From positions 64,001 to 128,000 of the IMG/VR virus record IMGVR_UViG_3300029319_007985: a stretch of DNA of 64,000 nucleotides. One strand, written 5' to 3'. Shown here piece by piece: positions 2 to 63,898 of the stretch. The DNA is from a virus. The notes under the pieces are model-generated. The model saw only the letters and a list, made by a program, of their open reading frames with translations. It was not told where the DNA came from and searched no databases. Made by a program: the position numbers and the translations under genes. Numbering within the stretch: the stretch's first letter is position 1; each line of letters starts with the position of its first letter.

Positions 2-208
2 ATATTCATTATGGGACTTTTGACCATAACCATTATAAGTGTTGGTTCACTGCAGGTGATGGCTGGTAATCTAGACATAGGATTATTGATTGGTTCTAAC
101 ATATTGGCGGCACGAGCAGTGCAAGGCACAAGCAAGTATGCTAAAGGAGTTGATGCTTTACGACAGAGAGAAAAAGCAGTAAGGGAGATTAATGAAGTCA
201 TCAAGTAA
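2..208 (+). CDS. 3' end of T1SS ABC-transporter-like membrane domain protein (starts before window; no ATPase domain follows)
   Basis: GLLIGSNILAARAV resembles the last TM helix of PrtD/LapB-type exporters; frame open to window edge; next gene is HlyD-like. Confidence 0.55.
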   Translation: MFIMGLLTITIISVGSLQVMAGNLDIGLLIGSNILAARAVQGTSKYAKGVDALRQREKAVREINEVIK

Positions 209-890
209 ATTTTTTCTATTATTAAGTAGTTTAATTATTGGCCTGTTTGTATGGTGTTATTTGGCCAAAGTTGACATAACTTTCCAAGCACCAGGACATA
301 TCGAAACACAGAGCAATTCAACCACTATCGACACAATGGTGGATGGTCAGATAGAAAATGTATTAATAAGAGAAGGTGATATTGTTAAAGAAGGAGACAT
401 AGTGGTTGTGATTAATCCAGGAGTTGGCTACGAAAAATATAATGTTGTTGCAAATATAAATGGAAGGGTGCAGAGTCTTAACTATAAAAATCCAGGTGCA
501 GTTGTAGAAAAGGGCGAATCAATATTGACCATAGTGCCGGAAGATCAAAAAATGGTTGTTATGGGCAAACTGTCTGTATCTAATAGAGGTTACGTCAAAA
601 TAGGAAACATAGCCAAAGTAAAATTGGCAAACCAGGATCAAATAAGATTTGGACCGATCACAGGAATAATTTCAAACATATCACCAGATGTGGTGTACAC
701 CGACGCAGGAACCTATTACGCGATTGAAATTTTATTGGAATCACAACAATTTAGTAATGGTAAAGATAATTATTTGTTAGTACCAGGCATAATGGTGGAA
801 GTTTACATTTTAACCGGAGAGAGAACAGTAATGAGTTACATCACAAGTCCTTTCCATAATAGCCTTGGACAGGCATTACAGGAGAGATAA
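192..890 (+). CDS. Short HlyD-family membrane fusion protein
   Basis: N-terminal TM, lipoyl-like halves (VLIREGDIVKEGD, GAVVEKGESILTIVP), C-terminal PGIMVEVYILTGERTVMSYITSP. Confidence 0.8.
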   Translation: MKSSSKFFLLLSSLIIGLFVWCYLAKVDITFQAPGHIETQSNSTTIDTMVDGQIENVLIREGDIVKEGDIVVVINPGVGYEKYNVVANINGRVQSLNYKNPGAVVEKGESILTIVPEDQKMVVMGKLSVSNRGYVKIGNIAKVKLANQDQIRFGPITGIISNISPDVVYTDAGTYYAIEILLESQQFSNGKDNYLLVPGIMVEVYILTGERTVMSYITSPFHNSLGQALQER

Positions 891-1018
891 TGCTGACTTG
901 GTTTTTAGCAGGAATTTTTATTGGATTGTGTATAAGATGTATATGCACTCCACATAAGAATGAAGAAGAAAAATTTAAAGATCCATGGAACTGGACTTCA
1001 TTTGGCGGAGGAGGCTAA
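890..1018 (+). CDS. Small membrane protein, 42 aa (MLTWFLAGIFIGLC...)
   Basis: Read manually; TAATG overlaps with both neighbours. Confidence 0.6.
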   Translation: MLTWFLAGIFIGLCIRCICTPHKNEEEKFKDPWNWTSFGGGG

Positions 1019-1239
1019 TGGATAAGAAACTATCCTATAAACAAAGATTTAAAAAGGCTTGTAACACAGATAACGTGATAGATTTCAGTGTTGACGTTGG
1101 TTTAATTGCCTTTGACGTACTAGCCTCACCAATACTAATCGTAGTGAGAATAGCAAGATTCTATATTAGGAAATTTGTTAACAATTATCTCAAACGTTTT
1201 TTAAAATGGTTTGTGCATAAAGTTTTAAGAATAAAATGA
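1018..1239 (+). CDS. Hypothetical protein (start moved to 1018)
   Basis: GGAGG upstream and TAATG coupling; hydrophobic centre, basic C-terminus. Confidence 0.6.
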   Translation: MDKKLSYKQRFKKACNTDNVIDFSVDVGLIAFDVLASPILIVVRIARFYIRKFVNNYLKRFLKWFVHKVLRIK

Positions 1240-3074
1240 GTAAAAAATTAACAAGTGTCTGGATGGTGGTAGCACTATCCTTGATCTTATTTTCTGCTAG
1301 ATTATTTGATACAAGTCCTGTTGAAACTTTAAGGTTAAAAACATTTGACTACTATCAAAAGATATCACCCAGAGACGTAACTACAAACTCTGTAGTCATA
1401 GTCGAGATTACGGAGCAAGATCTTAAAAAATACGGCCAATGGCCATGGCCAAGAAATTTAATTGGAAACTTACACAACAGGATATATCAGCACGGGGCAA
1501 AAGTAATCCAATACAATATAATATTCGCTGAAAAAGATAGGGCCGGCAAGGATGAACTTTTTGCACAAAAATTAGCCGGCACTAACACCGTGATGATGTA
1601 TAGTATAAAAGATTCTGCCACAGACGGACAGGTGGCAAAGGTTCCTATTGTAAAACAAGGTGAGCCTGACAAATTTTTGTATAGTTTCAAAGGAGTGGTA
1701 ACAAACATATCGGAACTATTAAGATTCGCTAACGGTGCCGGAGTTAATATTATGGTGCCTAATATAGATGGTACCATTAGGCAGATCCCTTTATTTGTAA
1801 ACACAGACATAGGCACAATACCAAATCAAGTTCTAGACACAATAAGAGTTTACAATAAAAATAACAAATATAAAATTGTTGCAGATAACAACGGTGTTAC
1901 TGAAATACTTCTAAGTAGAAACAAAAAGATCTACACTGATTCTAACGCAATGTTCAATATAAATTTTGCAGAAGCAATAACCATCACAAAATACAGTGTA
2001 ACCGATATTATCAAAAACAAAATTAACCTAGAAAACAAAATTGTTGTAGTTGGGTTGAATGCCGCGGGATTGAGTTATTTAAAAGATACTCCTCTAGGAC
2101 TCATGACCGACACACAAATTAGTGCCCAGGCTATAGAAACTGATCTTACAGACAGCCAACTTATAAGAAATGGTAATACCAATCTAATAGAAATAATAGC
2201 AGTTTTTGTCATTGGATTTTTACTGATAGCCTTAGTGCCCAGGTTTAATATTACCAGCACTGTGCTCGCTTATTTGACGCTTTTAACCGGCATAATTTCG
2301 TCGAGTTTGGTCGCCTATAACGGTTACAATTATATGCTAGACGCATCTTTTCCGGTCTTGTTTATTACCATCATTTGGGGCCATTTGGTATTCAATAGTT
2401 TTGCCAAGCAGTATAGATTAAGGCAACAAATAAAGAAACAGTTTGAACATTATCTTGATCCACGCATGGTCAAAAAATTACAGAAGGATCCTGGGTTATT
2501 GAAGTTGGGTGGAGAGACAAAAACCATGACATTTATGTTTTCAGACATCCGAGGGTTCACTCCTATATCAGAAAAATACAAGGGCAATCCACAAGGACTC
2601 ACACGTTTGATCAATAGGTTTTTGACACGTATGACCAACATTATAATCAAAAACGGTGGCACAGTTGACAAGTACATGGGCGATTGCATAATGGCATTTT
2701 GGAATGCTCCGTTGGATACGCCCAGACATGAAACTTTAGCCATCAAAACTGCATTGCAAATGCAGAAAGAACTTAAAAAATTAAACAGAGAACTTAAAAA
2801 GGAAAAACTTCCTCAAATCAATATTGGCATAGGAATAAACACAGGAGAAGCATTAGTTGGCAACATGGGCAGTGATCAGCGTTTTGATTATTCTGTTATA
2901 GGTGATGATGTCAACTTAGCAAGTAGATTAGAAAGCAGTTCAAAGGAACTACAGACAACTTTGGTAATTGGTGAGAAAACACGTATAAAATGTAAAAAAA
3001 TTAAGTTTACTTCGCTGGGTTCAATCAAAGTAAAAGGAAAAACTGAAGACATCAAAGTGTACACGGTTAAATAA
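1236..3074 (+). CDS. CHASE2-domain class III adenylate/guanylate cyclase
   Basis: CHASE2 GQWPWPR, three TM helices, cyclase motifs FSDIRGFT, DKYMGDCIMAFW, YSVIGDDVNLASRLE. Confidence 0.92.
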   Translation: MSKKLTSVWMVVALSLILFSARLFDTSPVETLRLKTFDYYQKISPRDVTTNSVVIVEITEQDLKKYGQWPWPRNLIGNLHNRIYQHGAKVIQYNIIFAEKDRAGKDELFAQKLAGTNTVMMYSIKDSATDGQVAKVPIVKQGEPDKFLYSFKGVVTNISELLRFANGAGVNIMVPNIDGTIRQIPLFVNTDIGTIPNQVLDTIRVYNKNNKYKIVADNNGVTEILLSRNKKIYTDSNAMFNINFAEAITITKYSVTDIIKNKINLENKIVVVGLNAAGLSYLKDTPLGLMTDTQISAQAIETDLTDSQLIRNGNTNLIEIIAVFVIGFLLIALVPRFNITSTVLAYLTLLTGIISSSLVAYNGYNYMLDASFPVLFITIIWGHLVFNSFAKQYRLRQQIKKQFEHYLDPRMVKKLQKDPGLLKLGGETKTMTFMFSDIRGFTPISEKYKGNPQGLTRLINRFLTRMTNIIIKNGGTVDKYMGDCIMAFWNAPLDTPRHETLAIKTALQMQKELKKLNRELKKEKLPQINIGIGINTGEALVGNMGSDQRFDYSVIGDDVNLASRLESSSKELQTTLVIGEKTRIKCKKIKFTSLGSIKVKGKTEDIKVYTVK

Positions 3075-3081
3075 TATTACA

Positions 3082-3255
3082 ATGACAGGTTTAGAAGTAA
3101 TGACAATAGTATCAAAGGCATGGCCAATCTTCCTTGGCTTCATTCTTTTAATTGTAACTTTGGCGCAGGCCCACTACAGAATAAAGGTGCTTGAAGAAAA
3201 AGTTAAAGTTGCCTTTGACCTAATCAACAAATTGACAGACAAGTTTAGCAAATAA
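3082..3255 (+). CDS. Small membrane/coiled-coil protein, 57 aa
   Basis: Read manually (MTGLEVMTIVSKAWPIFLGFILL...); TAAATA 8 nt upstream. Confidence 0.65.
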   Translation: MTGLEVMTIVSKAWPIFLGFILLIVTLAQAHYRIKVLEEKVKVAFDLINKLTDKFSK

Positions 3256-3316
3256 ATTTTACTTTAATCAAGAAGTAGTCGCTTAACTTAGCCTCCTAAC
3301 AGGTTAAGTATTTTAG

Positions 3317-3583
3317 ATGAATTATTTTTTGGTAGTAATAATGTGTATAGGATTGGATTGCACAACAGCATGGAACCCAACTCCCTACGACTCGAAGTTC
3401 GAATGTGAAATAAGTGCCAAAGAAACAGTGCAATCACTTTCAACAACTTTTCCAGACAGTGACGGAGAAGTCTACTGTCTTACCAAAGAAGAATACAGCA
3501 CTTGGAAAAAGGCCATAGATGCTGGAGTTATACCAAGACTAAACAAACATAGACTCAACCAACCACTAGAACAATCTATCTAG
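3317..3583 (+). CDS. Hypothetical Cys-containing exported protein
   Basis: Hydrophobic N-terminus, 4 Cys; TAAGTA 6 nt upstream. Confidence 0.6.
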   Translation: MNYFLVVIMCIGLDCTTAWNPTPYDSKFECEISAKETVQSLSTTFPDSDGEVYCLTKEEYSTWKKAIDAGVIPRLNKHRLNQPLEQSI

Positions 3584-3586
3584 TAA

Positions 3587-3614
3587 TTGACAATTCTTTA
3601 AGATCTGTTATAAT
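3587..3614 (+). promoter_or_regulatory. Sigma70-type promoter, leaderless
   Basis: TTGACA-N16-TATAAT with TG extension; ATG follows after 6 nt. Confidence 0.8.
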
Positions 3615-3620
3615 TTAAGC

Positions 3621-3932
3621 ATGTCTTCAAAGCGTTCTAGAACTGCGGTTAAAACACTCACTTGGCGTGTATTAGCAACAACTGACACGTTTCTTATCAG
3701 TTATTTTATTACTGGTAGATTCGATTTTGCCGGAGCCATTGCTGGTATTGAGGTGGCAACAAAAATGATTTTGTACTACCTGCATGAAAGAGCATGGAGC
3801 AGAATTAAATGGGGCAAACTAATAATAGATTTGCCTACTTCACCGTATCCTTTCGAAGACTGGAAAATAAAAAGGTTACGTAATTTTTTAGATAAAAAAG
3901 GAAACAAAAGATTGGCAAGGTTATTACAATGA
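3621..3932 (+). CDS. DUF2061-like membrane protein
   Basis: KTLTWRVLATTDTFLISYFITG...KMILYYLHERAW. Confidence 0.8.
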   Translation: MSSKRSRTAVKTLTWRVLATTDTFLISYFITGRFDFAGAIAGIEVATKMILYYLHERAWSRIKWGKLIIDLPTSPYPFEDWKIKRLRNFLDKKGNKRLARLLQ

Positions 3933-6899: not shown

Positions 6900-6909
6900 C
6901 TGCTATAGT
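6882..6909 (+). promoter_or_regulatory. Sigma70-type promoter, leaderless
   Basis: TTGACA-N16-TATAGT with TG extension; ATG follows after 5 nt. Confidence 0.75.
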
Positions 6910-6914
6910 AACTT

Positions 6915-9772: not shown

Positions 9773-10819
9773 ATGCGTATAGGTTTTTGCTGTAAATGGC
9801 TTAATGATAGATCTGAGTTTGGTGGAATGAAAGTCAATGCCAAGGATCGCGAATTAAATGGTAGGTCCACCACAATGCGTTGGCTGAGAGAACATCCAAA
9901 TGACGCAGAGCAAAGACAATGGGACATTATGAATCACAATGCGGCCGCGGCCAAAAGAATGGTCGAGCGTGTTGGTAGTCTACCACCTGAACGTAGAATG
10001 GTACGACTAGGATCTGAAATGTTACAAGGCTACACAGAAAAAAATTGGAAGTCCTGGTGGCAACAAAAAGAAATACAAGATCATTGTGCCAAGATATTTG
10101 CGCCAGTTGGTGAGACTGCAAGACGTCTGGACGTCAAAGTAAGTTTTCATCCCGGACAATTTTGTTGTCTGTCTAGTGTAAATCCTGACATAGTAGAAAG
10201 ATCGATAGAAGAATTTGAATACCATGTTGACATGGCCCGTTGGATGGGATATGGAAAGACATGGCATGATGGTTGCAAGGTGAATGTACATATCTCTGGC
10301 AAACATGGGCCGGAAGGACTACTAAAAGTATTTCCAAGGCTATCCAAAGAAGCAAGGAACTTGATCACAATAGAAAATGACGAGATGGGGCATGGACTGG
10401 AAGATACATTACAAGTTGCACATAAGATTGCCTTAGTTTTAGATATTCATCATCACTGGATACGAGCAGAAGAATATATCGATCCAAATGACGACAGAGT
10501 CAAGAAAGTGATAGATAGTTGGCGAGGTGTAAGGCCCACTCTACATTATTCATACAGCAGAGATGAACACCTCAAACCAGCAGGACTAGGTGACAAAATG
10601 CATACAGAAATGCATGATATCAAAATGTTATTAGAAAGAGGATGTAAAAAACAAAAATTACGGGCACACTCTGACCTACTTCCAAATGCAAAAGTAAATG
10701 ACTGGGCATTGAGTTTTGGTGAAAATTTTGATATACAAACAGAGGCCAAAGGTAAGAACATGGCCGCTGAGCAACTGTACGACCAGTGGCTAAATATCAA
10801 TAATGGAGCCAATATCTAA
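9773..10819 (+). CDS. uvsE: UV DNA damage endonuclease
   Basis: RIGFCC, SFHPGQF, IENDE, LDIHHH, AHSD, EAKGK. Confidence 0.9.
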   Translation: MRIGFCCKWLNDRSEFGGMKVNAKDRELNGRSTTMRWLREHPNDAEQRQWDIMNHNAAAAKRMVERVGSLPPERRMVRLGSEMLQGYTEKNWKSWWQQKEIQDHCAKIFAPVGETARRLDVKVSFHPGQFCCLSSVNPDIVERSIEEFEYHVDMARWMGYGKTWHDGCKVNVHISGKHGPEGLLKVFPRLSKEARNLITIENDEMGHGLEDTLQVAHKIALVLDIHHHWIRAEEYIDPNDDRVKKVIDSWRGVRPTLHYSYSRDEHLKPAGLGDKMHTEMHDIKMLLERGCKKQKLRAHSDLLPNAKVNDWALSFGENFDIQTEAKGKNMAAEQLYDQWLNINNGANI

Positions 10820-16311: not shown

Positions 16312-19300
16312 ATGACACAGCAACAAATCATAAATGTAGGTGTGACCGAAAACGATGGAACTGGTGACAGTATCCAGGCGGCGGGTAGCAAGATAAACCA
16401 CAATTTTAGCCAACTCTACACTGATAACAACATTGACGGAAACATACTATGGCAGGGTAACAAAATCACTAGTAACCTGTCTAATTCAGATATTGTGCTG
16501 ACAGCATCTGGTACAGGAAAAATTCAATTGGCCGGCATTAAGATAGGCGGCACATCAATGAGCAGTGATGACAGCACCACTATCAACATAAACGAAAATT
16601 TACAGGTTGATGGCTCTGTTACTGCGACCACATTGGTTGGTGGTGGCTCTGGATTGACAGGAGCATCAATTACTAACGTTGGAGATCTTAGTGCAACTGG
16701 GTCAACACTTATATCTCCATCCAATGCAGACTTAACTTTTTCAACTGCTGGCACAGGAAGGATGATACTTGGTGATTTTATTATATTGGATGATAATAAC
16801 TTTACAGGCTCAAGAACCAATGATGACATCAACATCACTCCAAATGGTACAGGCTGTATAAATTTTCCAGCAATACAAATAAAGGCCAATAATATCAACG
16901 GCTTGCGATCAAACGATGACATAGTTATTACGCCAGCAGGCACAGGATCAATTGTGTTGCCTGCAATCACCATCAATGACAACAACATAGAAGGCAAAAG
17001 AAGTAACGATGACATAAATCTATTTGCCAGCATCAGTGGTGCTGTAAATGTCACAGATATAACAATAGATTCAAGTTTACGTCTAGCAGACAATAATATC
17101 ACAGCATTGAATACAAATTCAGATATCAACATAAATCCATCAGGCACAGGACTGATACAAATCAGCAAGATTGATGTCGATGATGGTACCATAGATGGAA
17201 CAACAGTTGGGGCGACTATTCCTGCCGCCGGAACATTTTCTACCCTTAGTGCCACAACGTTTCAAACAACGGGTCTAACAATAACCGACAACAAAATAGT
17301 AGCGAACACGTCAAACTCTGATTTAGTTTTGACTGGCAGTGGTTCTGGTGGTGTGCTATTAAATGGATTTTCTTTACCTGCTAGTGATGGCAGTTCAGGA
17401 CAAATACTACGAACGGATGGCAGTAAGACATTGAGTTTTGCCACTTCTCCTTTGATACTTGGTGTGACAACTTTTGCGGACACAACTCAAGACATAAGTT
17501 TTAGATCGACCTCAACTATAGATGTTAACACTGCCATTATTGCACATGAAATTGTGCCTAATTCTTCTACGCCATTAGATAAATTTACTTCCACACAGTT
17601 TGACAGTGTGTGGTATCATGCAGTCACCAAAGATCAAACAAATAACAGGTTTGGAGTTGCAAAATACTCATTAGCCAGAGGAACAATCAATGACGGAAGC
17701 ACAATCGATTCGGTGGTATCACAATCAAACCTAGTAAGAACTACAACGCACAATCATATCACAGTTGACACACAAATAAATGGTACATTTACTCAGTTGG
17801 ATGGCACTGGACCATCGGCAGAAAACGCATTTAAGGCCTACAGAATTGGCTTGGGTGACAGTGACTCCAGCACCAGTTCAGGTAACGTGGCCACAATTGT
17901 TAATGCTGATGTTGACAGTGCAAGTGAATCTCTGGACTCATGGGCGTATGCCAGTTACCGTGGCGCCAAATATTACATCAGTGCAGAAAACAGCGACACT
18001 GGAGAAGTCAGCAACATTGAGGCATTGGTGGTTCACAATGGAAGTGATGCTTTCATAAACTCTTACAATGTTGTAAACACAGGCAACAACGATCTACTGT
18101 CTTTGACAGCGGCCATAAGCGGAAGCAATGTGGTTTTGAGCGGAGCGGCTTTGACTCCAAACACAAAAGTACGTATGTATAGAATACTTTTGTCTGACAA
18201 CGAGACTTCCAGCACAGGAGACAATGTGAGTCTAATTGGAAATAAAACAGTAGCGGCCAGCACTGAGACAGTAATAGATCATGTGACCAGTACCGGCACA
18301 TCTGTTGGAAATGCGGCGGCCACAAAAACCGTAAACAGTTTTACAGTTGGAGAATATGATAGTGCTCTTTATTTTGTTGTAACCAAAGACAACGTAAACT
18401 CAGGCTTTGAAACAGGTAAAATAAGTTTGATGCACAATTTAAATGATGCTTTTCTAACACATTCTAGCATAGTAAGAACAGATCCTACAGATGTTCATCC
18501 TACTTTTGATGCAGACATTGTCAGTGCAGGGGACAGCACCAGCACTGTGAGATTAAGAATGACAGATGGTGATGGATCAACTGTTACGCCTGCAAACAGC
18601 ATGGCATTTTACAGAATAGGTTTGGGTGACAGTGATTCCACAGGGTACGTCGGTGAAATAACTTTGGTCAATGATATCACGGTTACAAACATCATAGATA
18701 GTTCAACCGCTACACTGGACGCATTTACGCACGGCTCACACGTTGGAGCAAAATATTTTATCTCGGTTAATAATCAATCCACAGGCGAAGTTGGAAACAT
18801 TGAAGCATTGGTCACTCATGACGGAACCAACGCATACATCACTACATACAACGAATCTTTTTCAGGCAACAACAGCCTTATCAGTCTGTCGGCGGTCATT
18901 AGTGGTACTTCTGTTATATTAAGAGGTTCTGCCACTGCAGGTGGTAGCACCAAAGTAATAGTCAACAGAGTAGTAGCATTTGGTGATTCAGAATCAAATG
19001 AAGCAAACTCAGATAGCACAAGAAAGATAATAGGTAATGTAATTGTTTCTAGCAGTGCAACGACCTTTGATAGTTTTTCGAGCGATGATGTTGATGCGGC
19101 CCATTACGTGATTACTGGTCAAAAAGGTTCCGATGAAAATTTCATTTGTGAGGCGATGGTTGTGACAGATGGGTCCAATGTGTTTGTGTCACAAGGTCCA
19201 AATGTCAGTACCAAGGAAAATGACATGTTGGAAATCACTGCAACAATTTCAGGCGGAACTGTAAGTGTTAAAGCAAGTTCTACTTCTGGTGCATCAACTG

Positions 19301-29042: not shown

Positions 29043-29489
29043 ATGGGACAAATAGAAGATTTACAAAATAAAGGTTTTGGCAGTCACGGTGGAAGACAGT
29101 ACACCGTTGAATATGATATTACTCCATTAAAGAAACGTGTTTTGGTAACAAACATGAAATTTGGAGAGATCAAAACTGCCGGGGGAATAATTATACCTGA
29201 CGATGACGGTACCGAATCTGGCATACACCCGCGTTGGGCAGAAGTGTACGCAGTAGGTAGCAAACAGGAAGACGTCAAAGTAGGGCAATGGATATTGGTG
29301 GCTCACGGCAGATGGAGTAGATCTTTCAAAGTTAAAAAGAATGGAAAAGAATTTGAAGTGAGAATGATTGATGAAAATGACATTTTATTAGTTTCTGACG
29401 AAAGACCCGCTGACGAAACATCTAAAAAAGCAGGTTACGTAAACACTGGCGGTATGCAACAAATGACAAGTTTACCGGGAAATGATTAA
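29043..29489 (+). CDS. groES: Co-chaperonin GroES-like
   Basis: [30 protein letters not shown]. Confidence 0.82.
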
Positions 29490-30748
29490 TGGAAGAAGAA
29501 AAAAAATATAAACCAGTAAACACAAACAAAGTGGCGGAGAACACTTCGCCGTTCAAAGGTGTGTTAGGTTGGCTAGATAACAGACTGCCAGTATTCAGGA
29601 TGTTCAAGCACGAATACTTGGACTTCCAAGTACCAAAAACTTTGACATACTTTTGGAGTTTTGGAGCAATATTGACATTTTGTTTATTAGGTCTAATTAT
29701 AACAGGCCTAATATTAGGAATGCATTATAAACCATCTACGGCAGAAGCATTTGACAGTGTTGAAAAAATTATGCGTGATGTCAACTACGGTTGGCTGATA
29801 AGGTACATGCATATGAACCTGGCGTCCTTTTTCTTTATTGCAGTCTATATACACATGTTCCGCGGATTATATTTTGGTTCTTACAAATCACCTCGAGAAC
29901 TTATGTGGATCTTAGGATTAATAATTTATTTCTTAATGGTGGCAACTGCATTTTTAGGATACACTTTGCCATGGGGGCAAATGAGTTTTTGGGGAGCAAC
30001 TGTTATAACAAGTTTATTTGGAGCAATACCTTATATTGGTGAAACTATAACACATTGGTTATGGGGCGCCTACGCAGTTGACGATCCAACATTAAACAGG
30101 TTTTATGTATTGCACTGGCTTATAGCATTTCTAATTGTGGGTGTTGTGTTGTTTCATGTTATTGCACTACACATGACCGGATCAAACAATCCAACAGGAG
30201 TTGAACCAAAAGACACTAGAGATACTGTAAGTTTTCATCCTTATGTCACAACAAAGGATTTATTTGCATTTTTAGTTTTTATTGTAATATTCGCGGCATT
30301 TTTATTTTTCATGCCTAACTATCTTGGACACCCTGACAACTATATAAAAGCCAATCCGTTAGTGACACCTGCACATATTGTACCTGAGTGGTATTTTTTA
30401 CCTTGGTACGCAGTGCTAAGAGCGATACCTGACAAACTAGGCGGAGTAATTGCAATGGTGTCAGCGATCGGCGTAATAGGTTTACTGCCATGGCTAGACA
30501 CTAGTAAGATAAGAAGTTCTATATATAGACCAGTCTGGAAACAGTTTGTTTGGATTTTGGTTGCGGACTTCTTCCTTCTAATGTACTGCGGTGCTATGCC
30601 GGCGGAACAACCATTTGTTCTTTTGAGTCAAATAGGTACAGCATATTGGTTCTTATTTTTCTTAGTAATTGCACCGGTTGTGGGTTGGACCGAGAAACCT
30701 ACACCTCCCCCTGCGGCTATTCACTTATACAAAAAATCTAAAAAATGA
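29489..30748 (+). CDS. petB: Cytochrome b of the bc1 complex, full length
   Basis: Two His pairs 14 residues apart (YMHMN/YIHMF, LHWL/LFHV), [18 protein letters not shown]. Confidence 0.96.
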
Positions 30749-43777: not shown

Positions 43778-44359
43778 ATGGCACAAACAAGTTTAACGAT
43801 ATCTGGACAAAAAACTTTCAAGTCAGCAATAACAGTGACTGAAGGTTGCACATTTACAAGCACCAGTGGCACAAACAAGATTGCGGCCGCTTCAACTAGC
43901 CTAGCCGCTCTTTCAGTTAGGGATTTAATCACAATCACAGGCACCACAAGTAACAATGCCACGTTTACTGTGAAAAGTGTAGATAGCAATGGTACATTTA
44001 TTACAGTTGAAGAAACTGTGACAGCAGAAACATCAGATGGATCCACAGACACAGTTTTAACTTATTCAGGATTTGTCACTGACAAATTCAAAGGAGATGG
44101 TTACTACTCCCAGACAGATGGAAACCATACCGTTGCTTATCATGTCACCACCAGTTGCACCGGTTCAATCAAAATGCAAGGTTCACTGGCAACAACTCCT
44201 ACAGAAGATGACTACTTTGATATTGACGGCACGACATTTACAACGGATCAAAGCACCACAATAAGTTCTGTAAACTTTACAGGAAACTTTGTTTGGGTAA
44301 GAGCAAAATGCACCGATAATACTGCCGGCGCAGTAAGTAAAATCCTATATAATAATTAA
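43778..44359 (+). CDS. Thr/Ser-rich putative virion protein
   Basis: TAAATA at 43765; GNFVWVRA. Confidence 0.6.
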   Translation: MAQTSLTISGQKTFKSAITVTEGCTFTSTSGTNKIAAASTSLAALSVRDLITITGTTSNNATFTVKSVDSNGTFITVEETVTAETSDGSTDTVLTYSGFVTDKFKGDGYYSQTDGNHTVAYHVTTSCTGSIKMQGSLATTPTEDDYFDIDGTTFTTDQSTTISSVNFTGNFVWVRAKCTDNTAGAVSKILYNN

Positions 44360-45512: not shown

Positions 45513-45865
45513 GGGCAGTCCAATTTATTAAAGAAGCCGTAGACTCTGATGCAATGAACGAGTTGAAGTTGTTCATCAACAATGATGAAGATCTATACAG
45601 AAAAAAGTTCATGCCAATTATAGCAAATATTAAAAGAAAAATAAAAAGAGGAGTTTACAATCATGAGATGGCTCCTAAATTATGGATGTATCTCGTTGAC
45701 GAAGCGGCAAGAAAATATGTAAAAGAATTTGGTTCTCCTGATCAAGACGTTGCTGATATGTTTCCAAAAGAATTACGCCAACAAATTGCAAAAGACATGG
45801 CTGACGAAGAACAAGAAAAAATAGAGGCAGGAGAATACGATGTTGTTAAAGGAACTATTTCTTAA
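45506..45865 (+). CDS. Putative internal head protein
   Basis: MVRAVQFIKE|A. Confidence 0.55.
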   Translation: MVRAVQFIKEAVDSDAMNELKLFINNDEDLYRKKFMPIIANIKRKIKRGVYNHEMAPKLWMYLVDEAARKYVKEFGSPDQDVADMFPKELRQQIAKDMADEEQEKIEAGEYDVVKGTIS

Positions 45866-52178: not shown

Positions 52179-53681
52179 ATGCGTTTAAAAGAAATCAATC
52201 ATCCGGTACAAGCAGACACATACGAAGCAAGTATGGCCCTGAATCAGTTGCTAAAAATAGGGCAACACGCAATCAAACTACACAACCTACTTAAAGATGA
52301 ACAGGAAATGGAGTCTTGGGTGGCCAAGAAGATTGACCTAGCAGGTGACTATGTTAAAAAAGTACACGGTTACATGATGGGTGAAAAAGCAGGTTTGTAT
52401 GATGACGCAGGCGAAGGACACATGAGCAAAAGCACATTGTATCACACTGCCAAGTATGCAATACAACTTATGCAGATGATAGACAAAGGTGATGACCTAG
52501 AAGGTTGGGTGCAAAGCAAACTGAATAAGGCCGCTGATTATCTACAGGGTGCGTACAACTATGAAGAATATCAAAAACTATCTCCATACAGAGAAGACCT
52601 AGACGGATCAACATTTTCAAAACACAAAGAAATTATCAAAAAAAACATAGACGAGATATTGGCCAAAGAAACTGATCTAGATGACACAGACACAAAACCA
52701 GGCATGATGAGGATCCTTGGCAAAAGAGTTAATGACGTGGAAAAAGAAATGTCAAAAAAAATGCGTAAAGAACCGCCTGTGTTAGACAAAGACTTTGATG
52801 ACCAACCGAGATACAAAGGACAAAGAATAGATGTTGGTGAAAAACATGGTGGCGAACACAGCACATCAGGTAGAAGCATGACCAAGGGCGAAATGAACAA
52901 AAGAGAAAAAATTGTTAAAGCAATGAAGAAAGACAAAGCAGGATTCAAGAAAAGATATGGTAAAGATGCAGACGCAGTGATGTATGCCACAGCAACCAAA
53001 CAAGCAATGGGCGAGGACAAGTACGAATTCAGAGGCAATCCTTTTCCTATATTGGGCAAAGCAGAAAGTTATCTAAACTACGGTTCGGACATGGCAAAAG
53101 CCATCATGAACAACAGTGACAATTTGAAGGCCATGGCACAAACCTACTTGGACAGAGTACCTAGTTTCGTAAACACAGAGATGAAAGAAATATTTCCTAA
53201 AAACGAAAGCGGTATCATGTACAGAGCGGGTGTTAAAAAATACGGCAAAGCAGGTATGAAAGCCATACAAAGTGCCGCAGGCAAAGGTGCTAGTCATCAA
53301 GAAATAGGTAAAATTAAAGACAAGTATTTGAAAGACGATGAAATCGACGAAGGACTTAAAGACACACTTCAAAAATTGGCGGCCGCTGGAATAATTGTTG
53401 GTACAATGGCCGGTGCTGGATCTATGATTAATGCTTTAGATAATAGTGTGCCTGCAATGAAAGCCATGAATACTGCTTACAAAATGGCAACTGATGCAGG
53501 TAATGAAGAACTAGCACAAATGATTAAAAATGATATTTCAGCAGTAAAAGTAAGACTAAGTTCAGGCAAAGATTTAAACTTTGTGAAAGCAATGCAGGAC
53601 AAATATAGTAAATTCATGCCAACAGAAGGTTTAGCGTATGAGTCAAAACTCGCTGTACTGCTTAATCAACAACTTAAATAA
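52179..53681 (+). CDS. Putative internal head polyprotein
   Basis: MRLKEI; tandem AI.L...E.WV..K...A.DY repeat; VGE|K, MGE|D, KNE|S, IDE|G junctions. Confidence 0.6.
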   Translation: MRLKEINHPVQADTYEASMALNQLLKIGQHAIKLHNLLKDEQEMESWVAKKIDLAGDYVKKVHGYMMGEKAGLYDDAGEGHMSKSTLYHTAKYAIQLMQMIDKGDDLEGWVQSKLNKAADYLQGAYNYEEYQKLSPYREDLDGSTFSKHKEIIKKNIDEILAKETDLDDTDTKPGMMRILGKRVNDVEKEMSKKMRKEPPVLDKDFDDQPRYKGQRIDVGEKHGGEHSTSGRSMTKGEMNKREKIVKAMKKDKAGFKKRYGKDADAVMYATATKQAMGEDKYEFRGNPFPILGKAESYLNYGSDMAKAIMNNSDNLKAMAQTYLDRVPSFVNTEMKEIFPKNESGIMYRAGVKKYGKAGMKAIQSAAGKGASHQEIGKIKDKYLKDDEIDEGLKDTLQKLAAAGIIVGTMAGAGSMINALDNSVPAMKAMNTAYKMATDAGNEELAQMIKNDISAVKVRLSSGKDLNFVKAMQDKYSKFMPTEGLAYESKLAVLLNQQLK

Positions 53682-56656: not shown

Positions 56657-56937
56657 TGTATAATTTACTCAAAGAATTTTGGGTAAACAGTTATAACACA
56701 GATAAGACAGCATTTTATCTTGAGATTATATCTGTGGCATTTACCATTGCAGGATCAGTGATATTGACTTTCACTTCTCCTTATCCTATAATGGAGTATG
56801 TGTTTCCTGTCTATCTGGTAGGATCTTGCACACTGGCCATTGCATGTTGGAGAAGAAGAATAATTTGGACACTGGTTTTGGCAAGTTGGTTTACTATAAT
56901 GAATGTGATTGGAAACATTAAAGTATTTTTATTATGA
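56656..56937 (+). CDS. Three-TM membrane protein
   Basis: Hydrophobic, coupled ORF. Confidence 0.6.
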   Translation: MYNLLKEFWVNSYNTDKTAFYLEIISVAFTIAGSVILTFTSPYPIMEYVFPVYLVGSCTLAIACWRRRIIWTLVLASWFTIMNVIGNIKVFLL

Positions 56938-59594
56938 GTTATATAGATGCATTCTATAAAAGAGATGAGGACAAAGTCCGTGTAGTTGAAAGAGACTCCA
57001 AAGGACAAAGAAAGTTTGTAGACTACGACGCAAGATATACATTTTACTATCCTGACAGCAGAGGAAAACACAGAAGTATATTTGGAGAACAACTGCAAAA
57101 AGTACAATGCTCCACTTTCAAGCAATTTATAAAAGAACAAAAAATAAGATCAAATAAAAAATTATACGAACAAGATATAAATCCAGTCTTTAGGTGCCTG
57201 GAAGAAAATTATCTCGGTAAGGAAACTCCAAAATTAAATGTTGTATTTTTCGATATTGAAGTTGACTTCGACCCACAGCGTGGATATTCTACTACAGATG
57301 ATCCATTTATGCCAATAACAGCAATAACTTGTTATCTAAGTTGGAGCGATCAATTAGTAACACTTGCGGTTCCGCCAAAGACACTAAACATGTCAGGAGC
57401 AAAAATGGCGACAGAACGTTTTGAAAACGTCATGTTGTTTGAAAAAGAAGCGGACATGTTAGACGCATTTTTAACACTGATAGATGATGCGGACATTTTG
57501 AGTGGATGGAACTCGGAAGGTTATGATATTCCATACACTGTTGGTAGGATACAAAAAACATTGAGTAGCGACGACACAAGAAGACTATGCTTCTGGGGTG
57601 AAAAGCCAAAGCGTAGGACATTTGAGAAATATGGCAGAGAGCAACTAAGTTATGACCTGATAGGAAGAGTGCATTTGGATCTGCTAGAACTTTACAGAAA
57701 ATACACATATGAAGAAAGACATTCGTACAGACTAGATGCAATAGGTGAACACGAACTTGGCGAAAAAAAGACAGTGTATGAAGGATCTTTGGACAACCTA
57801 TATAATAATGACTTTGGTTTGTTTATAGAATACAATAGACAAGACTGTGCTCTACTTGCCAAACTGGAAAAAAAATTAAAATTTATTGAACTTGCAAACG
57901 AAATAGCACACCAAAATACCGTGTTATTACAGACTACGATGGGGGCAGTCGCAGTGACTGAACAAGCAATCGTGAATGAAGCACACAGAAGAGGCATGAT
58001 TGTGCCTGGAAGAGTCAAACGTGCCGAAGGAGAATCTGTCACGGCGGCTGGTGCATACGTGGCCACGCCCAAGAAAGGTTTACATAATTGGATAGGTAGT
58101 TGCGATATCAACAGTCTATATCCAAGTGTAATTAGAGCATTGAACATGGGACCAGAATCAATTGTTGGACAGATACGCCCTGTTATCACGTCTGCGGAAA
58201 TAAATCGTGCAAGGCACCAGAAAAAGTCATTTGCGGCGGCTTGGGATAATCAATTTGGCACTTGGGAATATCAAGCAGTAATGAAACAAGATAAAGGCAC
58301 TGAAATAATAGTTGACTGGGAAGATGGCACAAGTGTGAAAATGAGTGCAGGGCAACTACACGAACTTGTGTTTGAGAGTAATAATCAATGGATGTTGAGT
58401 GCAAACGGAACTATTTTCACGTATGAATTTGAAGCAATCATCCCTGGACTACTTAAAAGATGGTATGCTGAAAGAAAAGAAATGCAACGTAAGATGCATG
58501 AGTGCGGTGATAATGAAATAGAAAAAGAGTTTTGGGACAAAAGGCAACTAGTCAAAAAAATTAATTTAAACAGTTTGTATGGAGCAATCTTAAATCCAGG
58601 TTGCAGATTCTTCGACATAAGGATTGGACAGTCAGTAACACTAACTGGTAGATGTATCACAAAACACATGGGCGCAAAAGTAAATGAAGTAATAACTGGC
58701 GACTATGATCATAAAGGTGATTCAGTAATTTACGGCGACACAGATTCAGTTTACTTTAGTGCTTACAAACCGCTACAGAATGAAATAACGTCTGGAAAAG
58801 TGCCATGGCAAAAAGAAAACATAATAAATTTATATGATAAAATTGCTGACGAAGTCAATAACTCCTTTACACAATACATGACCAAAGCATTTCACTGTCC
58901 AAAAACTAGAGGCGAGGTAATAAAAGCAGGACGTGAATTAGTTGCTAGTAAAGGATTGTTTATTACAAAGAAAAGATATGCAGTGTTGTACTTCGACAAG
59001 GAGGGAGAACGTCAAGATATAGCCGGCTCGCCAGGAAAAATGAAGGCAATGGGACTTGATCTTAAAAGATCTGACACTCCTGTTTTTGTACAAAACTTTC
59101 TAAGTGAGTTGTTGATGATGGTTTTGACTAACAAAACTGAAGAAGAAGTCCTAAAAAGAATATCTGAATTTAGGTCAGAGTTCAAAGCAAGGCCAGGTTG
59201 GGAAAAAGGATCACCAAAAAGAGCAAACAACGTTACAGAATATCTTGCAAAAGAAACTAAACAAGGGAGAGCCAACATGCCAGGGCACGTAAGAGCAAGT
59301 ATAAACTGGAATAGATGTAGAGAAATGTACAGCGACAAATATTCTCTTCCTATAACGGATGGAGCAAAAGTGATTGTGTGTAAATTGAAAAACAATCCAT
59401 TAGGCTACACTTCAATAGCCTATCCAGTTGACGAGATGAGAATACCCGACTGGTTCAAAGAAATGCCATTTGATGCTGAAGCAATGGAATCTACAATACT
59501 AGATCAAAAAATAGACAATCTTATCGGGGTGCTTAATTGGGACGTACAAAGCACAGAGACCACAAACACATTCAACAAACTATTCCAATTTTAA
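56934..59594 (+). CDS. Family B DNA polymerase
   Basis: FDIEV, YNRQD, DINSLYPS, KINLNSLYG, YGDTDS, KKRY; no intein. Confidence 0.96.
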   Translation: MSYIDAFYKRDEDKVRVVERDSKGQRKFVDYDARYTFYYPDSRGKHRSIFGEQLQKVQCSTFKQFIKEQKIRSNKKLYEQDINPVFRCLEENYLGKETPKLNVVFFDIEVDFDPQRGYSTTDDPFMPITAITCYLSWSDQLVTLAVPPKTLNMSGAKMATERFENVMLFEKEADMLDAFLTLIDDADILSGWNSEGYDIPYTVGRIQKTLSSDDTRRLCFWGEKPKRRTFEKYGREQLSYDLIGRVHLDLLELYRKYTYEERHSYRLDAIGEHELGEKKTVYEGSLDNLYNNDFGLFIEYNRQDCALLAKLEKKLKFIELANEIAHQNTVLLQTTMGAVAVTEQAIVNEAHRRGMIVPGRVKRAEGESVTAAGAYVATPKKGLHNWIGSCDINSLYPSVIRALNMGPESIVGQIRPVITSAEINRARHQKKSFAAAWDNQFGTWEYQAVMKQDKGTEIIVDWEDGTSVKMSAGQLHELVFESNNQWMLSANGTIFTYEFEAIIPGLLKRWYAERKEMQRKMHECGDNEIEKEFWDKRQLVKKINLNSLYGAILNPGCRFFDIRIGQSVTLTGRCITKHMGAKVNEVITGDYDHKGDSVIYGDTDSVYFSAYKPLQNEITSGKVPWQKENIINLYDKIADEVNNSFTQYMTKAFHCPKTRGEVIKAGRELVASKGLFITKKRYAVLYFDKEGERQDIAGSPGKMKAMGLDLKRSDTPVFVQNFLSELLMMVLTNKTEEEVLKRISEFRSEFKARPGWEKGSPKRANNVTEYLAKETKQGRANMPGHVRASINWNRCREMYSDKYSLPITDGAKVIVCKLKNNPLGYTSIAYPVDEMRIPDWFKEMPFDAEAMESTILDQKIDNLIGVLNWDVQSTETTNTFNKLFQF

Positions 59595-59601
59595 ATACAA
59601 G

Positions 59602-60429: not shown

Positions 60430-60475
60430 TTTAACAGTTGATTCTGATCTAAATATTTTATATAATAATTGTATT

Positions 60476-61213
60476 ATGATAGATATCTTGAAAGACATTG
60501 TCAAGCACACGCATGGACTTGGATTCCTCGATCTTGTTAAAATTACTGGTACCAGTGATTCAACTGCTATTGATTCAATGGCAGAGGACAGATCAGTTAT
60601 CCTGCAAGGATCTTTTCACAAACCACAATCAGGTATGATAGGAACTTTTGGTATGCCTCAGTTGAATAAACTAGATATACATTTAAAATGTCCGGAATAC
60701 AAAGATAAGGCAAACATATCCGTAATGACTGGAACCAGAAATGGTGCAGAAACACCAACAGGTATACACTTTGAAAATGAAAAAGGTGATTTCAAGAATG
60801 ATTATAGATTTATGAATGCCGAGATTATTAACGAAAAACTTAAAACTGTAAAATTTAAAGGTGTTAAGTGGGACGTTGAGATCGAGCCTACAGTGGCAAG
60901 TGTACAAAGATTCAACTTTCAATCAGTAGCAAACACAGAACACAATTCTTTTGTTGTAAGAACAGAGGATGGTAACCTGATATTCACTTTTGGTGATCAA
61001 TCATCACATGGTGGTGAATTTGTATTTGCAAAAGACGTGAAAGGAACTCTTAATAAAGGATGGAGTTGGCCGGTAGCACAGGTATTACAGATATTGAAAC
61101 TTTCTGATTCTGCAAAAGTAACACTACATTTTTCCAATGAAGGAGCAATGCAGGTTACAGTAGACTCAGGACTAGGCAAATATCAGTATATTATTCCAGC
61201 GCAGGCGCAGTAA
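60476..61213 (+). CDS. Sliding clamp-like protein
   Basis: 245 aa, next to polB, C-terminal GAMQVTVDSGLGKYQYIIPA; promoter TTGATT-N17-TATAAT. Confidence 0.6.
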   Translation: MIDILKDIVKHTHGLGFLDLVKITGTSDSTAIDSMAEDRSVILQGSFHKPQSGMIGTFGMPQLNKLDIHLKCPEYKDKANISVMTGTRNGAETPTGIHFENEKGDFKNDYRFMNAEIINEKLKTVKFKGVKWDVEIEPTVASVQRFNFQSVANTEHNSFVVRTEDGNLIFTFGDQSSHGGEFVFAKDVKGTLNKGWSWPVAQVLQILKLSDSAKVTLHFSNEGAMQVTVDSGLGKYQYIIPAQAQ

Positions 61214-62655
61214 TGACAGATAAAAGGCAAGAACATTTAGGAGAGTACAGCAGAGACTTTGCGGTGTTCTTGCCTGCTATTTCAAACTTTTACAATACTT
61301 TCATTAGCAAACAAAGGGTTACTGAGGGCACCCACATACCAGCAGAAAGAATACCAAAAGGATTGGACAGAGGAGTCGAAGGATTAAACTTTATCAATCC
61401 TGAACAAGGATATTTCACATATCCAACAGCATTATATTCGGCAGGACACGCCTGTTTAGATATGGATAAAACAGCAGACAGAGATTCAATGTGTGTCAAT
61501 CGAGACAGAAAGTTTTCAACGATTATTGGTGACTCAGGTGGATATCAGATAGGAAAAGGTGTTATTAAATTTGATTGGAAAGATTTTGAAGGAAATAAAG
61601 CAAACAAAGTAAGGTCAGATATTTTAAATTGGTTGGAACTTACAAGCGATTGGGCAATGACCTTAGACGTGCCAACTTGGGCGGCAGACGATTTGAATTC
61701 ACCAAAAACAGGACTAAAAAGTTTTCAAGATACATTGGACGGCACAATTTACAATAATAAGTTTTTCCAAAAAAATAGACTAGGACAGACCAAGTTATTA
61801 AACGTGTTACAAGGTGATGATTGGGAAACAGCACAAATTTGGTATGACAAAGTAAAAGATTTTGAATTTGAAGGTTGGGCAATGGGCGGAATCAACATGT
61901 GTGACATGGAGGTTATGTTAAAAAGGCTAATCATAATGAGAGATGAAAAGAAACTGGATGGTAAAGACTGGATGCACGTACTAGGCACGTCACAACTTGA
62001 TTGGGCATGTTTCTTAACACAGGTACAAAGACAGGTTCGAAAGAATATCAATGACAAATTTACTATTAGTTTTGATAGTGCGTCAGCATTTTTATCAACC
62101 GCAAATGGACTTGTGTACACGCACAACTTGTTTACTCCAAAAAGATGGAGTTACATAATGGAGAAGGCACCAGATGACAAGAGACTAAAAGGATCAACTA
62201 TTCCGTTTCCTTTCAAGTCAGCAATAGGAGAAAGACTAATACTTGGAGATGTTTGTGCTTATGGTGAAGGGGATCTAAACAAAAACAATAAAGAGGGCAA
62301 AACAAGTTGGGATAGTTTTAGTTACTGCTTGATGATGGCCCATAATGTTTACAACCATATAAGAGCGGTGCAAATTGCAAATGACTTGAATGACATTGAG
62401 ATGATCAAACATAAACCACAGGTAAAACACTGGAGAAAGACTAAGGATTCGGACAACACAGATGAACCAAGTGACTTTGTTCCACGAAATATTTTATATT
62501 TCAACACACTTGTGGAAGAAGTGTTCACAAGTGAAAAGCCAATGGATGTAATAAACAATGCCAGTAGTTTCCTTGCTGACATACGTGGCACTAGATGGGC
62601 AAGGGCCACAGGCGGTGGAAAAGGCAAAAACAACTTTAGCAGTCTATTCGAATAG
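61213..62655 (+). CDS. TGT-fold transglycosylase (DpdA-like)
   Basis: DSGGYQ, LDVP, VLQG, AMGG, HVLG, SFDS, HN. Confidence 0.8.
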   Translation: MTDKRQEHLGEYSRDFAVFLPAISNFYNTFISKQRVTEGTHIPAERIPKGLDRGVEGLNFINPEQGYFTYPTALYSAGHACLDMDKTADRDSMCVNRDRKFSTIIGDSGGYQIGKGVIKFDWKDFEGNKANKVRSDILNWLELTSDWAMTLDVPTWAADDLNSPKTGLKSFQDTLDGTIYNNKFFQKNRLGQTKLLNVLQGDDWETAQIWYDKVKDFEFEGWAMGGINMCDMEVMLKRLIIMRDEKKLDGKDWMHVLGTSQLDWACFLTQVQRQVRKNINDKFTISFDSASAFLSTANGLVYTHNLFTPKRWSYIMEKAPDDKRLKGSTIPFPFKSAIGERLILGDVCAYGEGDLNKNNKEGKTSWDSFSYCLMMAHNVYNHIRAVQIANDLNDIEMIKHKPQVKHWRKTKDSDNTDEPSDFVPRNILYFNTLVEEVFTSEKPMDVINNASSFLADIRGTRWARATGGGKGKNNFSSLFE

Positions 62656-62664
62656 GAGGATAAA

Positions 62665-62877
62665 ATGGTAAAAGTTAAAAACAAGAAACTAAAAAAATTA
62701 TTGTATGAAAAGAATTGGTTAGATAAAAAAGTTGCCGAACTAACCAAAGATCGGAAAAAAGATAGAAGTTGGGACGCCAAAGCAACTTTGGTAAGATTAA
62801 AAAAACAAAAACTGAGATTGAAGGAAGAAATAACAAGACTAGCAAACAAATTGGGCAGTTTAACAAAACTAAAGTAA
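62665..62877 (+). CDS. Basic coiled-coil protein (DUF465-like)
   Basis: LKKQKLRLKEEI; GGAGG SD. Confidence 0.55.
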   Translation: MVKVKNKKLKKLLYEKNWLDKKVAELTKDRKKDRSWDAKATLVRLKKQKLRLKEEITRLANKLGSLTKLK

Positions 62878-62878
62878 A

Positions 62879-62906
62879 TTGACAAAATGTTTTTCTATGT
62901 TATAAT
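62879..62906 (+). promoter_or_regulatory. Sigma70-type promoter, leaderless
   Basis: TTGACA-N16-TATAAT with TG extension; ATG follows after 6 nt. Confidence 0.82.
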
Positions 62907-62912
62907 AGGCTT

Positions 62913-63458
62913 ATGTTAAGAGATTATTCTACAGGCTTCAAAGAAGATGTGAATGTTTTTTCAGGTATTGAAATAGAACACACTCCGGCATATGGTAAAC
63001 AAACACTTTTCCTTGCACGTAACGATCTTACTTTTGATCAAATACAAAGTTTGGCCGTGGCCGCTGATGCAGAAGCAATATACTATGGAGCAAATAGGTC
63101 CTATATGCACAGTCACGCGATGCAGTTGGCTCAAATACATCAATTGTTAGACAGAGGATACTGGGTAACTGTTGATTACCCATTTGAATTACATCAATTG
63201 GTTGCCAAGAAGTTTAGCACGTGCTGGAGAAAGGAAAGATTTATTCCATTCTGCTCTATCATATTTCCACACACAGAAGAAGATGACAATTTGTGTTTCA
63301 AAGTAGACGATGTAGATTTTAACAAAACAAATCCTGGTGTTTGGAGCATGACTATGAAAGATTTCAAAGACAAAGCAGGATTTACTAAATGGGAAGAATA
63401 CAAACAAGATGAACCAATAACAGAGGACAAAATATGGCCAGCACCACAGAAAGCGTAA
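62913..63458 (+). CDS. Hypothetical phage protein
   Basis: EIEHTPAYGKQTLF, KVDDVDFNKTNPGVW. Confidence 0.65.
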   Translation: MLRDYSTGFKEDVNVFSGIEIEHTPAYGKQTLFLARNDLTFDQIQSLAVAADAEAIYYGANRSYMHSHAMQLAQIHQLLDRGYWVTVDYPFELHQLVAKKFSTCWRKERFIPFCSIIFPHTEEDDNLCFKVDDVDFNKTNPGVWSMTMKDFKDKAGFTKWEEYKQDEPITEDKIWPAPQKA

Positions 63459-63898
63459 TTGATCAGATGTATAACATACCTGAGCAACAACAAGAACAAG
63501 CATTGAAAGAAAAAGCCGGAAAGGCGGCAAAAATGATATGGGTGACCTTTCAAAAAGAAGGTATGCACAAATACCCTGCGGCACTAGATGATCCAAAATT
63601 AAAGACAGGAGATGAGTACGATGTTAGTTTCTTAGGATATCCACACAGACACATATTTCATTTCAAAGTGGCAATAGAAGTATTCCACGATGACAGAGAC
63701 ATTGAATTTATACAGTTTAAAAGATGGCTCCTTAATTTGTACAAGGACGGCACTATACAAAGCGACTTTAAAAGTTGTGAAATGATGAGTGATGACCTAT
63801 ACATTGCAATCACAAAAAAATATCCAGGTAGACGCATAGAAATAGATGTATCAGAAGATGGTGAAAACGGATCACACGCAGTATATGAAAGAACTTAA
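63434..63898 (+). CDS. QueD-like T-fold protein (second type)
   Basis: EGMH, HRHIFH, DIEF, SCEM, VSEDGENG. Confidence 0.6.
   Translation: MASTTESVIDQMYNIPEQQQEQALKEKAGKAAKMIWVTFQKEGMHKYPAALDDPKLKTGDEYDVSFLGYPHRHIFHFKVAIEVFHDDRDIEFIQFKRWLLNLYKDGTIQSDFKSCEMMSDDLYIAITKKYPGRRIEIDVSEDGENGSHAVYERT

Follow-up and report, generated by a model that had tools for sequence, protein, structure and literature searches.

Short GC-type words are depleted across much of a giant marine phage family except in a GGC context

The stretch of DNA analyzed here (the window, 64,000 nucleotides) comprises bases 64001-128000 of a 172,389-bp viral contig from IMG/VR (record IMGVR_UViG_3300029319_007985, hereafter G000). 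From this DNA the pentamer GCWGC and several other short GC-type words have been removed by synonymous recoding, and a comparison with related phages reveals a context rule: words of the GCGC, GCNGC, and RGCY types are purged only when they lack a GGC that is not preceded by G. The window also encodes a protein with the fold of tRNA-guanine transglycosylases (TGTs), which we consider a candidate DpdA-like DNA transglycosylase. Our favored reading, to which we assign a probability of about 0.45, is that nucleases reading GC-type words act on the phage, that a guanine modification placed at GGC shields some of the sites, and that the remaining sites have been purged. The novelty of the analysis lies in the context rule and in its link to a GGC-type shield.

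A preliminary description of the window, made by eye, had reported that neither GCAGC nor GCTGC occurs, although base composition predicts a few dozen. Indeed, both words are absent from all 64 kb, where a maximal-order Markov model predicts about 60 occurrences. When synonymous codons are permuted within each gene (null 1; 100 shuffles for the window), GCWGC is observed 0 times versus 62.2 ± 5.1 expected (minimum 51) in the window, and 0 times versus 165.7 ± 8.5 in the whole contig. Its counterpart GCSGC is doubled, both in the window (88 vs 40) and in the contig (230 vs 105). The codon choices described earlier also hold across the contig. Single alanine codons are mostly GCA (49%) and GCT (17%), with GCC at 22% and GCG at 11.5%, yet all 196 Ala-Ala pairs open with GCC (90) or GCG (106), and the four runs given as examples read as reported when their letters are checked directly. 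Similarly, serine following a codon that ends in GC is AGC in none of 80 cases, and cysteine in this position is TGC in none of 15, in line with the AGC AGT and TGC TGT pairs described for Ser-Ser and Cys-Cys. The same holds between a codon ending in G and one beginning with C, where glutamine is CAG in 0 of 49 cases and leucine is CTG in 0 of 78. Ala-Ala dipeptides number 196 versus 204 expected and dipeptide frequencies are normal; thus, the purge costs no amino acids. The GCWGC purge is real, complete, and purely synonymous.

Positions 9941-9952, plus strand: recoded alanine run GCGGCCGCGGCC, from direct reading; further examples lie at 18313-18321, 43883-43891, and 53379-53387.

The original observation is therefore confirmed, but it understated the phenomenon, missing the absence of AGCT and AGCCC/GGGCT as well as a context-dependent purge of GCGC and GCNNGC. 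Under null 1, AGCT is found 0 times versus 387 ± 15 in the contig and 0 versus 133 in the window, and AGCCC/GGGCT is found 0 times versus 88 ± 9 and 0 versus 29, respectively. In the window, HGCGCD (10 vs 24) and GCDHGC (6 vs 29) are depleted rather than absent. A scan of all 4- to 6-mers in the contig adds CGCGC/GCGCG (2 vs 24), AGCGCT (0 vs 10), and GCTAGC (0 vs 12). When the codon shuffle is repeated with the three primary words GCWGC, AGCT, and AGCCC/GGGCT forbidden (null 2), the contig still falls short in GCDHGC (11 vs 72), MGCGCK (0 vs 22), and GCRYGC (2 vs 25). Words that show no depletion in the contig include GATC, GGCC, CCGG, CTAG, TGCA, and GANTC.

Positions 1-64000, both strands: sequence free of GCWGC, AGCT, and AGCCC/GGGCT, and depleted in the GGC-free forms of GCGC and GCNNGC, from codon-shuffle counts.

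The contig carries no end repeats and, at an estimated completeness of 47%, represents roughly half the genome of a T4-like giant marine phage. It is 94% coding with intact reading frames, and its gene set is of phage type, including a family B polymerase, a ClpA-like ATPase, and baseplate and fibre proteins; T4-type portal, capsid, terminase, and gp4 genes are present in its relatives. No DNA near-identical to the window was found among GenBank phages. Among cultured phages, Phosso and Atu_ph07, two jumbo phages of Rhizobiaceae, are closest, with polymerases 44-49% identical to that of G000. This polymerase served as the marker with which relatives were collected and placed.

Positions 56934-59594, plus strand: family B DNA polymerase (PHROG DNA polymerase, E 1e-195; 49% identity to Sinorhizobium phage Phosso).

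A search of IMG/VR with the polymerase yielded more than 300 relatives, of which 127 were examined (80-96% amino-acid identity, 31-49% GC) and placed with the window in a tree of 128 rows rooted on Phosso. GCWGC is missing from 95 of the 128 rows, and parsimony requires only two changes, both reversions, one on the long stem of a 31-row clade and one leading to the pair L057/L059. In these reverted lineages GCWGC occurs 587 times versus 478 expected, and where L059 carries a GCWGC site, its purged sister has GCSGC opposite. A further 80 loci (732 kb), sampled from 475 gathered via the gp4 gene, contain no GCWGC at all. Across more than 200 loci the counts fall into two groups, one at 0 and one close to expectation, and no locus lies clearly between them. 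Phosso and Atu_ph07 carry GCWGC at normal levels.

AGCT behaves differently: its purge requires about 15 changes on the tree, against two for GCWGC, and passes through graded states, with 13 occurrences versus 301 expected in the purged relative G009 and 34 versus 209 in the purged relative G010. AGCCC/GGGCT tracks AGCT, its observed-to-expected ratio being 0.17 in AGCT-purged members and 0.65 in the others. In addition, CAGCTG (0.05) and CAGCT (0.12) are lower than other AGCT contexts (0.25-0.34) in the pooled relatives (L001-L322), a pattern suggestive of additional pressure of the PvuII type in lineages retaining other AGCT sites.

The context rule emerges when the purged contigs G000, G009, and G010 are compared with the non-purged relatives G006 and G007, and when densities per 100 kb are compared between 173 purged loci (1.48 Mb in total) and 33 non-purged loci. 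Overall, the purged words are HGCGCD, GGGCGC, GCWGC, AGCT, GGGCT, and GGGCCC, whereas GGCGC, GCSGC, GGCC, and HGGCT are retained. Specifically, GCWGC stands at 0 of 155 expected in G009, 0 of 109 in G010, and 0 of 167 in G000, while GCSGC is enriched about twofold. HGCGCD is observed 21 times versus 59 expected in G000, 0 versus 53 in G009, and 0 versus 39 in G010, whereas GCGC sites with a 5′ G or a 3′ C (GGCGC/GCGCC) remain at ratios of 0.55-0.81. Among GCNNGC words, GCDHGC falls to 0.13-0.21, but a spacer that forms GCC or GGC restores the ratio to 1.0-1.2. Likewise, among RGCY words, AGCT stands at 0-0.16, and GGCC and HGGCT at 0.9-1.2. In G006 and G007 the same word classes mostly stand at 0.8-1.4 (range 0.69-1.37), and GCWGC at 1.3 of the null.

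The pooled loci refine the rule. Every HGCGCD hexamer is reduced to 0.01-0.08 of its density in non-purged loci, and 154 purged loci have none. HGGCGC is retained, with GGCGC kept after A, C, and T alike (16.5 vs 15.0 for the A variant, purged vs non-purged), but the exemption fails when G precedes GGC: GGGCGC falls to 0.9 from 12.2. Similarly, GGGCT drops to 10 from 79 in AGCT-purged loci while HGGCT is unchanged, and GGGCCC drops to 0.1 from 2.9. The RGCY sites in which no GGC follows a base other than G are precisely AGCT, GGGCT/AGCCC, and GGGCCC. Because all three lack a shieldable GGC, the co-variation of AGCT and AGCCC is explained by one agent rather than two. The word GCGAGC, the sole purgeable word that contains GA, is not purged. 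A simpler formulation, in which any GGC in or adjacent to a site protects it, was rejected, since GCGGGC and the outer flanks of both GCWGC and GCDHGC contradict it.

These results divide the interpretation offered in the preliminary description, namely strong selection by host restriction or another sequence-specific defence, with a TseI/ApeKI-type site in mind. Selection by a reader of short words is upheld by zero counts against large codon-preserving expectations, by purely synonymous recoding, and by normal counts in sister lineages. These data do not, however, identify a host enzyme of the TseI/ApeKI type as the agent. Rather than differing from strain to strain, the loss of GCWGC has come close to fixation throughout a diverse phage family, and GCWGC is one member of a larger set of purged words. 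This set obeys the GGC-context rule, for which a single TseI-like enzyme offers no explanation.

What might distinguish a GGC preceded by a base other than G? A candidate lies near the end of the window.

Positions 61213-62655, plus strand: 480-amino-acid TGT-fold (guanine transglycosylase) protein, a candidate DpdA-like DNA transglycosylase, from predicted structure and conserved motifs.

A single-sequence search with this protein returns no Pfam or PDB sequence match, and a profile built from 54 homologues matches only tRNA-guanine transglycosylases, weakly (E about 0.8). The AlphaFold model, however, is confident (predicted local distance difference test score of 92), and its best 50 listed PDB fold matches are all TGTs (probability 1.00, E 6e-8). 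A GDSGGYQ motif and invariant aspartate residues are conserved over the 54 homologues. On the strength of this model, the protein would be a candidate for the enzyme that places 7-deazaguanine in DNA. Directly downstream of the window, and near the TGT-fold gene, lie genes for FolE (E 5e-49), a radical-SAM enzyme, and a glycosyltransferase; elsewhere the contig carries a PTPS (QueD-type) gene. In all sampled family members the TGT-fold gene stands beside deazaguanine synthesis genes. The protein family to which it belongs has no Pfam model and is abundant in ocean data, with 7,294 homologues scored in public data (Tara among the sources) and 971 representatives at 50% identity. Public data include contigs of 160-225 kb that encode this transglycosylase. 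Among GenBank phages its only homologues (28-40% identity) come from PA5oct-like, Vibrio, and Phosso jumbo phages, where they lack annotation.

The DpdA of phage CAjan modifies G in GA and in GGC, where the signal falls on the first of the two Gs. This modification blocks HaeIII; cleavage persists at sites whose G stands in a different context (PMC7544227). In phage iggy, the motif for deazaguanine modification is GA (PMC10484667). A shield specific for GGC and GA would account for the exemption of GCSGC, GGCGC, GGCC, HGGCT, and GCGAGC. As in CAjan, a TGT-fold enzyme is encoded beside FolE and QueE-type genes, and GGC is a documented target there. Unlike the DpdA proteins of CAjan and iggy, the protein described here matches no Pfam TGT model, and we infer the modified DNA, its GGC motif, the role of modification as the cause of the exemptions, and the host origin of the nucleases, with the motif deduced from sequence statistics alone.

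We therefore hypothesize that the phage lineage, under lasting selection by at least one nuclease that recognizes short GC-type words, defends itself in two layers. A family-wide pressure would act on GCGC and GCNGC, and another, varying between lineages, on RGCY including AGCT. In the first layer, the TGT-fold DNA transglycosylase, supplied by the phage FolE, QueD, and radical-SAM proteins, would exchange a G in GGC contexts for a 7-deazaguanine derivative, apparently requiring a base other than G before the GGC. A modified GGC within or abutting a site would render that site uncuttable. In the second layer, sites that could not be shielded in this way would have been removed by synonymous recoding, which would have forced Ala-Ala pairs into GCS-GCN.

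Several observations weigh against this proposal. Orthologues of the TGT-fold gene (83-86% identity) are carried by purged and non-purged relatives alike, so possession of the gene does not account for the difference between them. QueC was not found in the contig, which covers 47% of the genome. A GGC in the outer flank gives no rescue of GCWGC or GCDHGC, and GCGGGC, which is predicted to be unshielded, is not purged. The 21 HGCGCD sites retained by G000 consist of 20 TGCGCA/AGCGCA and one TGCGCG. The enrichment of GGC-containing forms is also expected from simple compensation for any purge specific to W or DH forms. Finally, a host nuclease of near-universal occurrence is not easily squared with streamlined marine Alphaproteobacteria, and marine phages HTVC008M and HMO-2011 and three cyanophages are not GCWGC-free.

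Who, then, owns the nuclease? We place host origin somewhat ahead. The graded and labile purge of AGCT and GGGCT resembles strain-level host restriction, whereas the coupled loss of GCWGC and HGCGCD, which is family-wide and all-or-none, favors a nuclease that is either phage-borne or very widespread among hosts. The phage-borne alternative holds that the phage's own methylase-free, restriction-like enzyme cuts GC-type words in host or rival DNA, that its own sites are purged or deazaguanine-shielded, and that the two non-purged lineages lost the nuclease. It draws on the near-fixation of the coupled purges over a family of 31-49% GC from many metagenomes, on the contrast between the tree changes of GCWGC and AGCT, and on the bimodal GCWGC counts; moreover, candidate hosts themselves hold about 2 GCWGC per kb, with SAR11-like loci rich in the word, and no host pressure of this kind is evident in the cultured marine phages that were sampled. 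We nevertheless regard this alternative as doubtful. No restriction-type or DNA-methylase gene was found, among the matches listed, in the 172-kb contig (Pfam, PADLOC) or in extra parts of G009 and G010, which together cover about half of the genome. The DNA methyltransferase families PF00145 and PF01555 are not represented in G000, nor is PF00145 in the records of ten relatives. A PADLOC match to REase_II (window positions 45599-45796) is spurious, scoring 18 bits over 64 of 332 positions; the protein it hits is helical and charged, 122 amino acids long, and without a homologue in the relatives. A TnsA-like endonuclease of G009 was rejected as the purge nuclease; it is the T4 gp4 head completion protein, general in T4-like phages and present in the non-purged Atu_ph07.

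A direct comparison of purged (G000, G009, G010) and non-purged (G006, G007) contigs revealed no difference in nuclease, methylase, or anti-restriction genes, with the non-purged contigs covering 21-32% of a genome. The only consistent gene difference in shared regions is a PIG-L deacetylase in a sugar cluster. This PIG-L family de-N-acetylase (G000 151249-151890; L166:3791-4429) lies in a sugar/radical-SAM cluster, is present in G000 and G009, and is missing at the syntenic place in G006 and G007.

If the nuclease is phage-borne, this giant ocean phage family would use a deazaguanine-based restriction-modification system offensively. An immunity code of this kind, in which deazaguanine at a GGC not preceded by G serves as the "modification" and a nuclease acting on closely spaced or palindromic GC steps serves as the "restriction", is a speculative proposal that we consider rather unlikely.

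Efforts to connect the purge to a host returned a weak hint at most. No tRNA genes, sought as a host clue, were found in the window. A phage-borne cytochrome b gene that shares the purge may point, from sequence similarity, to an alphaproteobacterial host.

Positions 29489-30748, plus strand: phage-borne cytochrome b; its best matches among bacteria fall in the Alphaproteobacteria, with many from Pelagibacteraceae (56-64% identity).

A GCWGC restriction activity general to SAR11 is unsupported, with 65 GCWGC versus 59 expected in 50 kb of the pelagiphage HTVC008M. In the same stretch (L234, 1-50000) AGCT is at half of expectation (51 vs 100). The SAR116 phage HMO-2011 shows a mild GCWGC deficit (98 vs 146). 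A link to cyanophages was likewise set aside, given that S-RIM8, ACG-2014f, and S-SKS1 retain GCWGC at normal counts. Marine metaepigenome papers report GCWGC methylation only in Chloroflexi and AGCT methylation only in Thaumarchaeota, a misfit with the TolC, TonB-receptor, and alphaproteobacterial cytochrome b genes of the phage.

Fnu4HI (GCNGC), HhaI (GCGC), AluI (AGCT), and CviJI (RGCY) are Type IIP enzymes. Their recognition words, along with those of TseI/ApeKI and Fsp4HI, are the cores of the purged sets, but unlike in those systems no such enzyme was found in the phage contigs searched. TseI and ApeKI cut unmodified GCWGC, and Fsp4HI cuts GCNGC (PMC4926085).

Could the pattern then be a stack of ordinary restriction-site avoidance, formed without any DNA modification by a TseI-like enzyme at GCWGC, an AluI-like enzyme at AGCT, a type IIS enzyme at AGCCC, and several six-base enzymes with a GCGC core? 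The GGC rule would be a by-product of these specificities and of compensation. Both GCWGC and AGCT belong to the classic Type IIP sites (PMC4926085), and such avoidance is well documented for virulent double-stranded DNA phages (PMC6286503); the patchy, graded AGCT purge looks like strain-level restriction-modification pressure, and the failure of outer flanks to rescue GCWGC also fits. However, all six HGCGCD hexamer classes and GGGCGC would have to be hit while HGGCGC is spared, and AGCT, GGGCT, and GGGCCC would have to be purged jointly without loss of HGGCT and GGCC. These sets match no single specificity known, and many independent enzymes would have to co-vary. Furthermore, avoidance is reported to weaken in phages equipped with a different anti-restriction chemistry (PMC6286503), and its coexistence here with a modification gene set would need explaining. 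We judge this explanation improbable.

A third alternative invokes a modification-dependent nuclease of the BisI/GlaI/Esp638I kind, which cuts clusters of modified cytosines in GCGC, GCNGC, or GCNNGC, such that a phage with GpC cytosine modification would purge its GC clusters. The purged cores do mirror the specificities of this enzyme family, in which some members, marine Rhodobacterales enzymes among them, favor GCWGC over GCSGC (PMC4926085). Nonetheless, we consider it very unlikely, because a cytosine methyltransferase-like gene was not found in five family contigs, and the dependence of GCGC on its flanks and the purges of AGCT and GGGCT would be left unexplained. Lastly, an artefact of systematic miscalling at modified motifs, or a mutational bias from deamination of methylated sites, is a scarcely credible cause even for a genome that probably carries modified bases, given the same zero count in 173 loci from many independent metagenomes, intact reading frames at 94% coding, strictly synonymous changes with normal dipeptide counts, and the GCSGC found opposite sisters' GCWGC, which is a transversion rather than a deamination product.

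The combination of a purge with a GGC shield, our preferred reading, resembles known phage biology only in part. A survey by Rusinov et al. (2018) reported that restriction-site avoidance occurs in virulent double-stranded DNA phages and is lost in phages with modified DNA (hydroxymethylcytosine) (PMC6286503). As in the surveyed non-temperate phages, Type II-type words have here been removed almost completely by synonymous change, and relatives under other pressures keep their sites. Unlike surveyed avoidance, the removal is context-dependent, almost fixed in a large family, and coexists with a set of DNA-modification genes. Site avoidance and DNA hypermodification are usually seen as alternatives; here they seem to work together, in a phage group that is among the most abundant uncultured ones in the ocean. 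Limited literature searches turned up no coupling of a DpdA motif with site purging. If the exemptions do mark the modified motif, then the target of a DNA-modifying enzyme in an uncultured phage would be predictable from the genome alone, as would the specificity of the nuclease. The sharp split between purged and non-purged sister clades offers a clean comparative system for finding that nuclease, whether in host or phage.

Other words in these genomes also depart from expectation. Recoding has raised NotI-like words in the contig, including GCGGCC/GGCCGC (62 vs 18) and CCGCGG (18 vs 6), and CAGCAG is 1.5-fold over-represented in G000. GATC is over-represented about 1.3-fold in all five contigs (G000, G006, G007, G009, G010), whether purged or not. 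Late-promoter-like words are low relative to the constrained codon null in the contig (TAAATA/TATTTA, 92 vs 211; ATAAGTA/TACTTAT, 4 vs 31), which looks like selection against stray late promoters inside genes. AGTACT contexts are also depleted in the contig (WAGTACTW, 1 vs 17; AAGTACT, 4 vs 30; GTAC at 0.72), reflecting either another avoided site of the ScaI/RsaI type or a regulatory word. Finally, GGCACAG is 2.5-fold over-represented in the contig (60 vs 24), chiefly as in-frame GGC ACA G, probably a codon-pair effect tied to avoidance of GGT AC(N), which would create GTAC.

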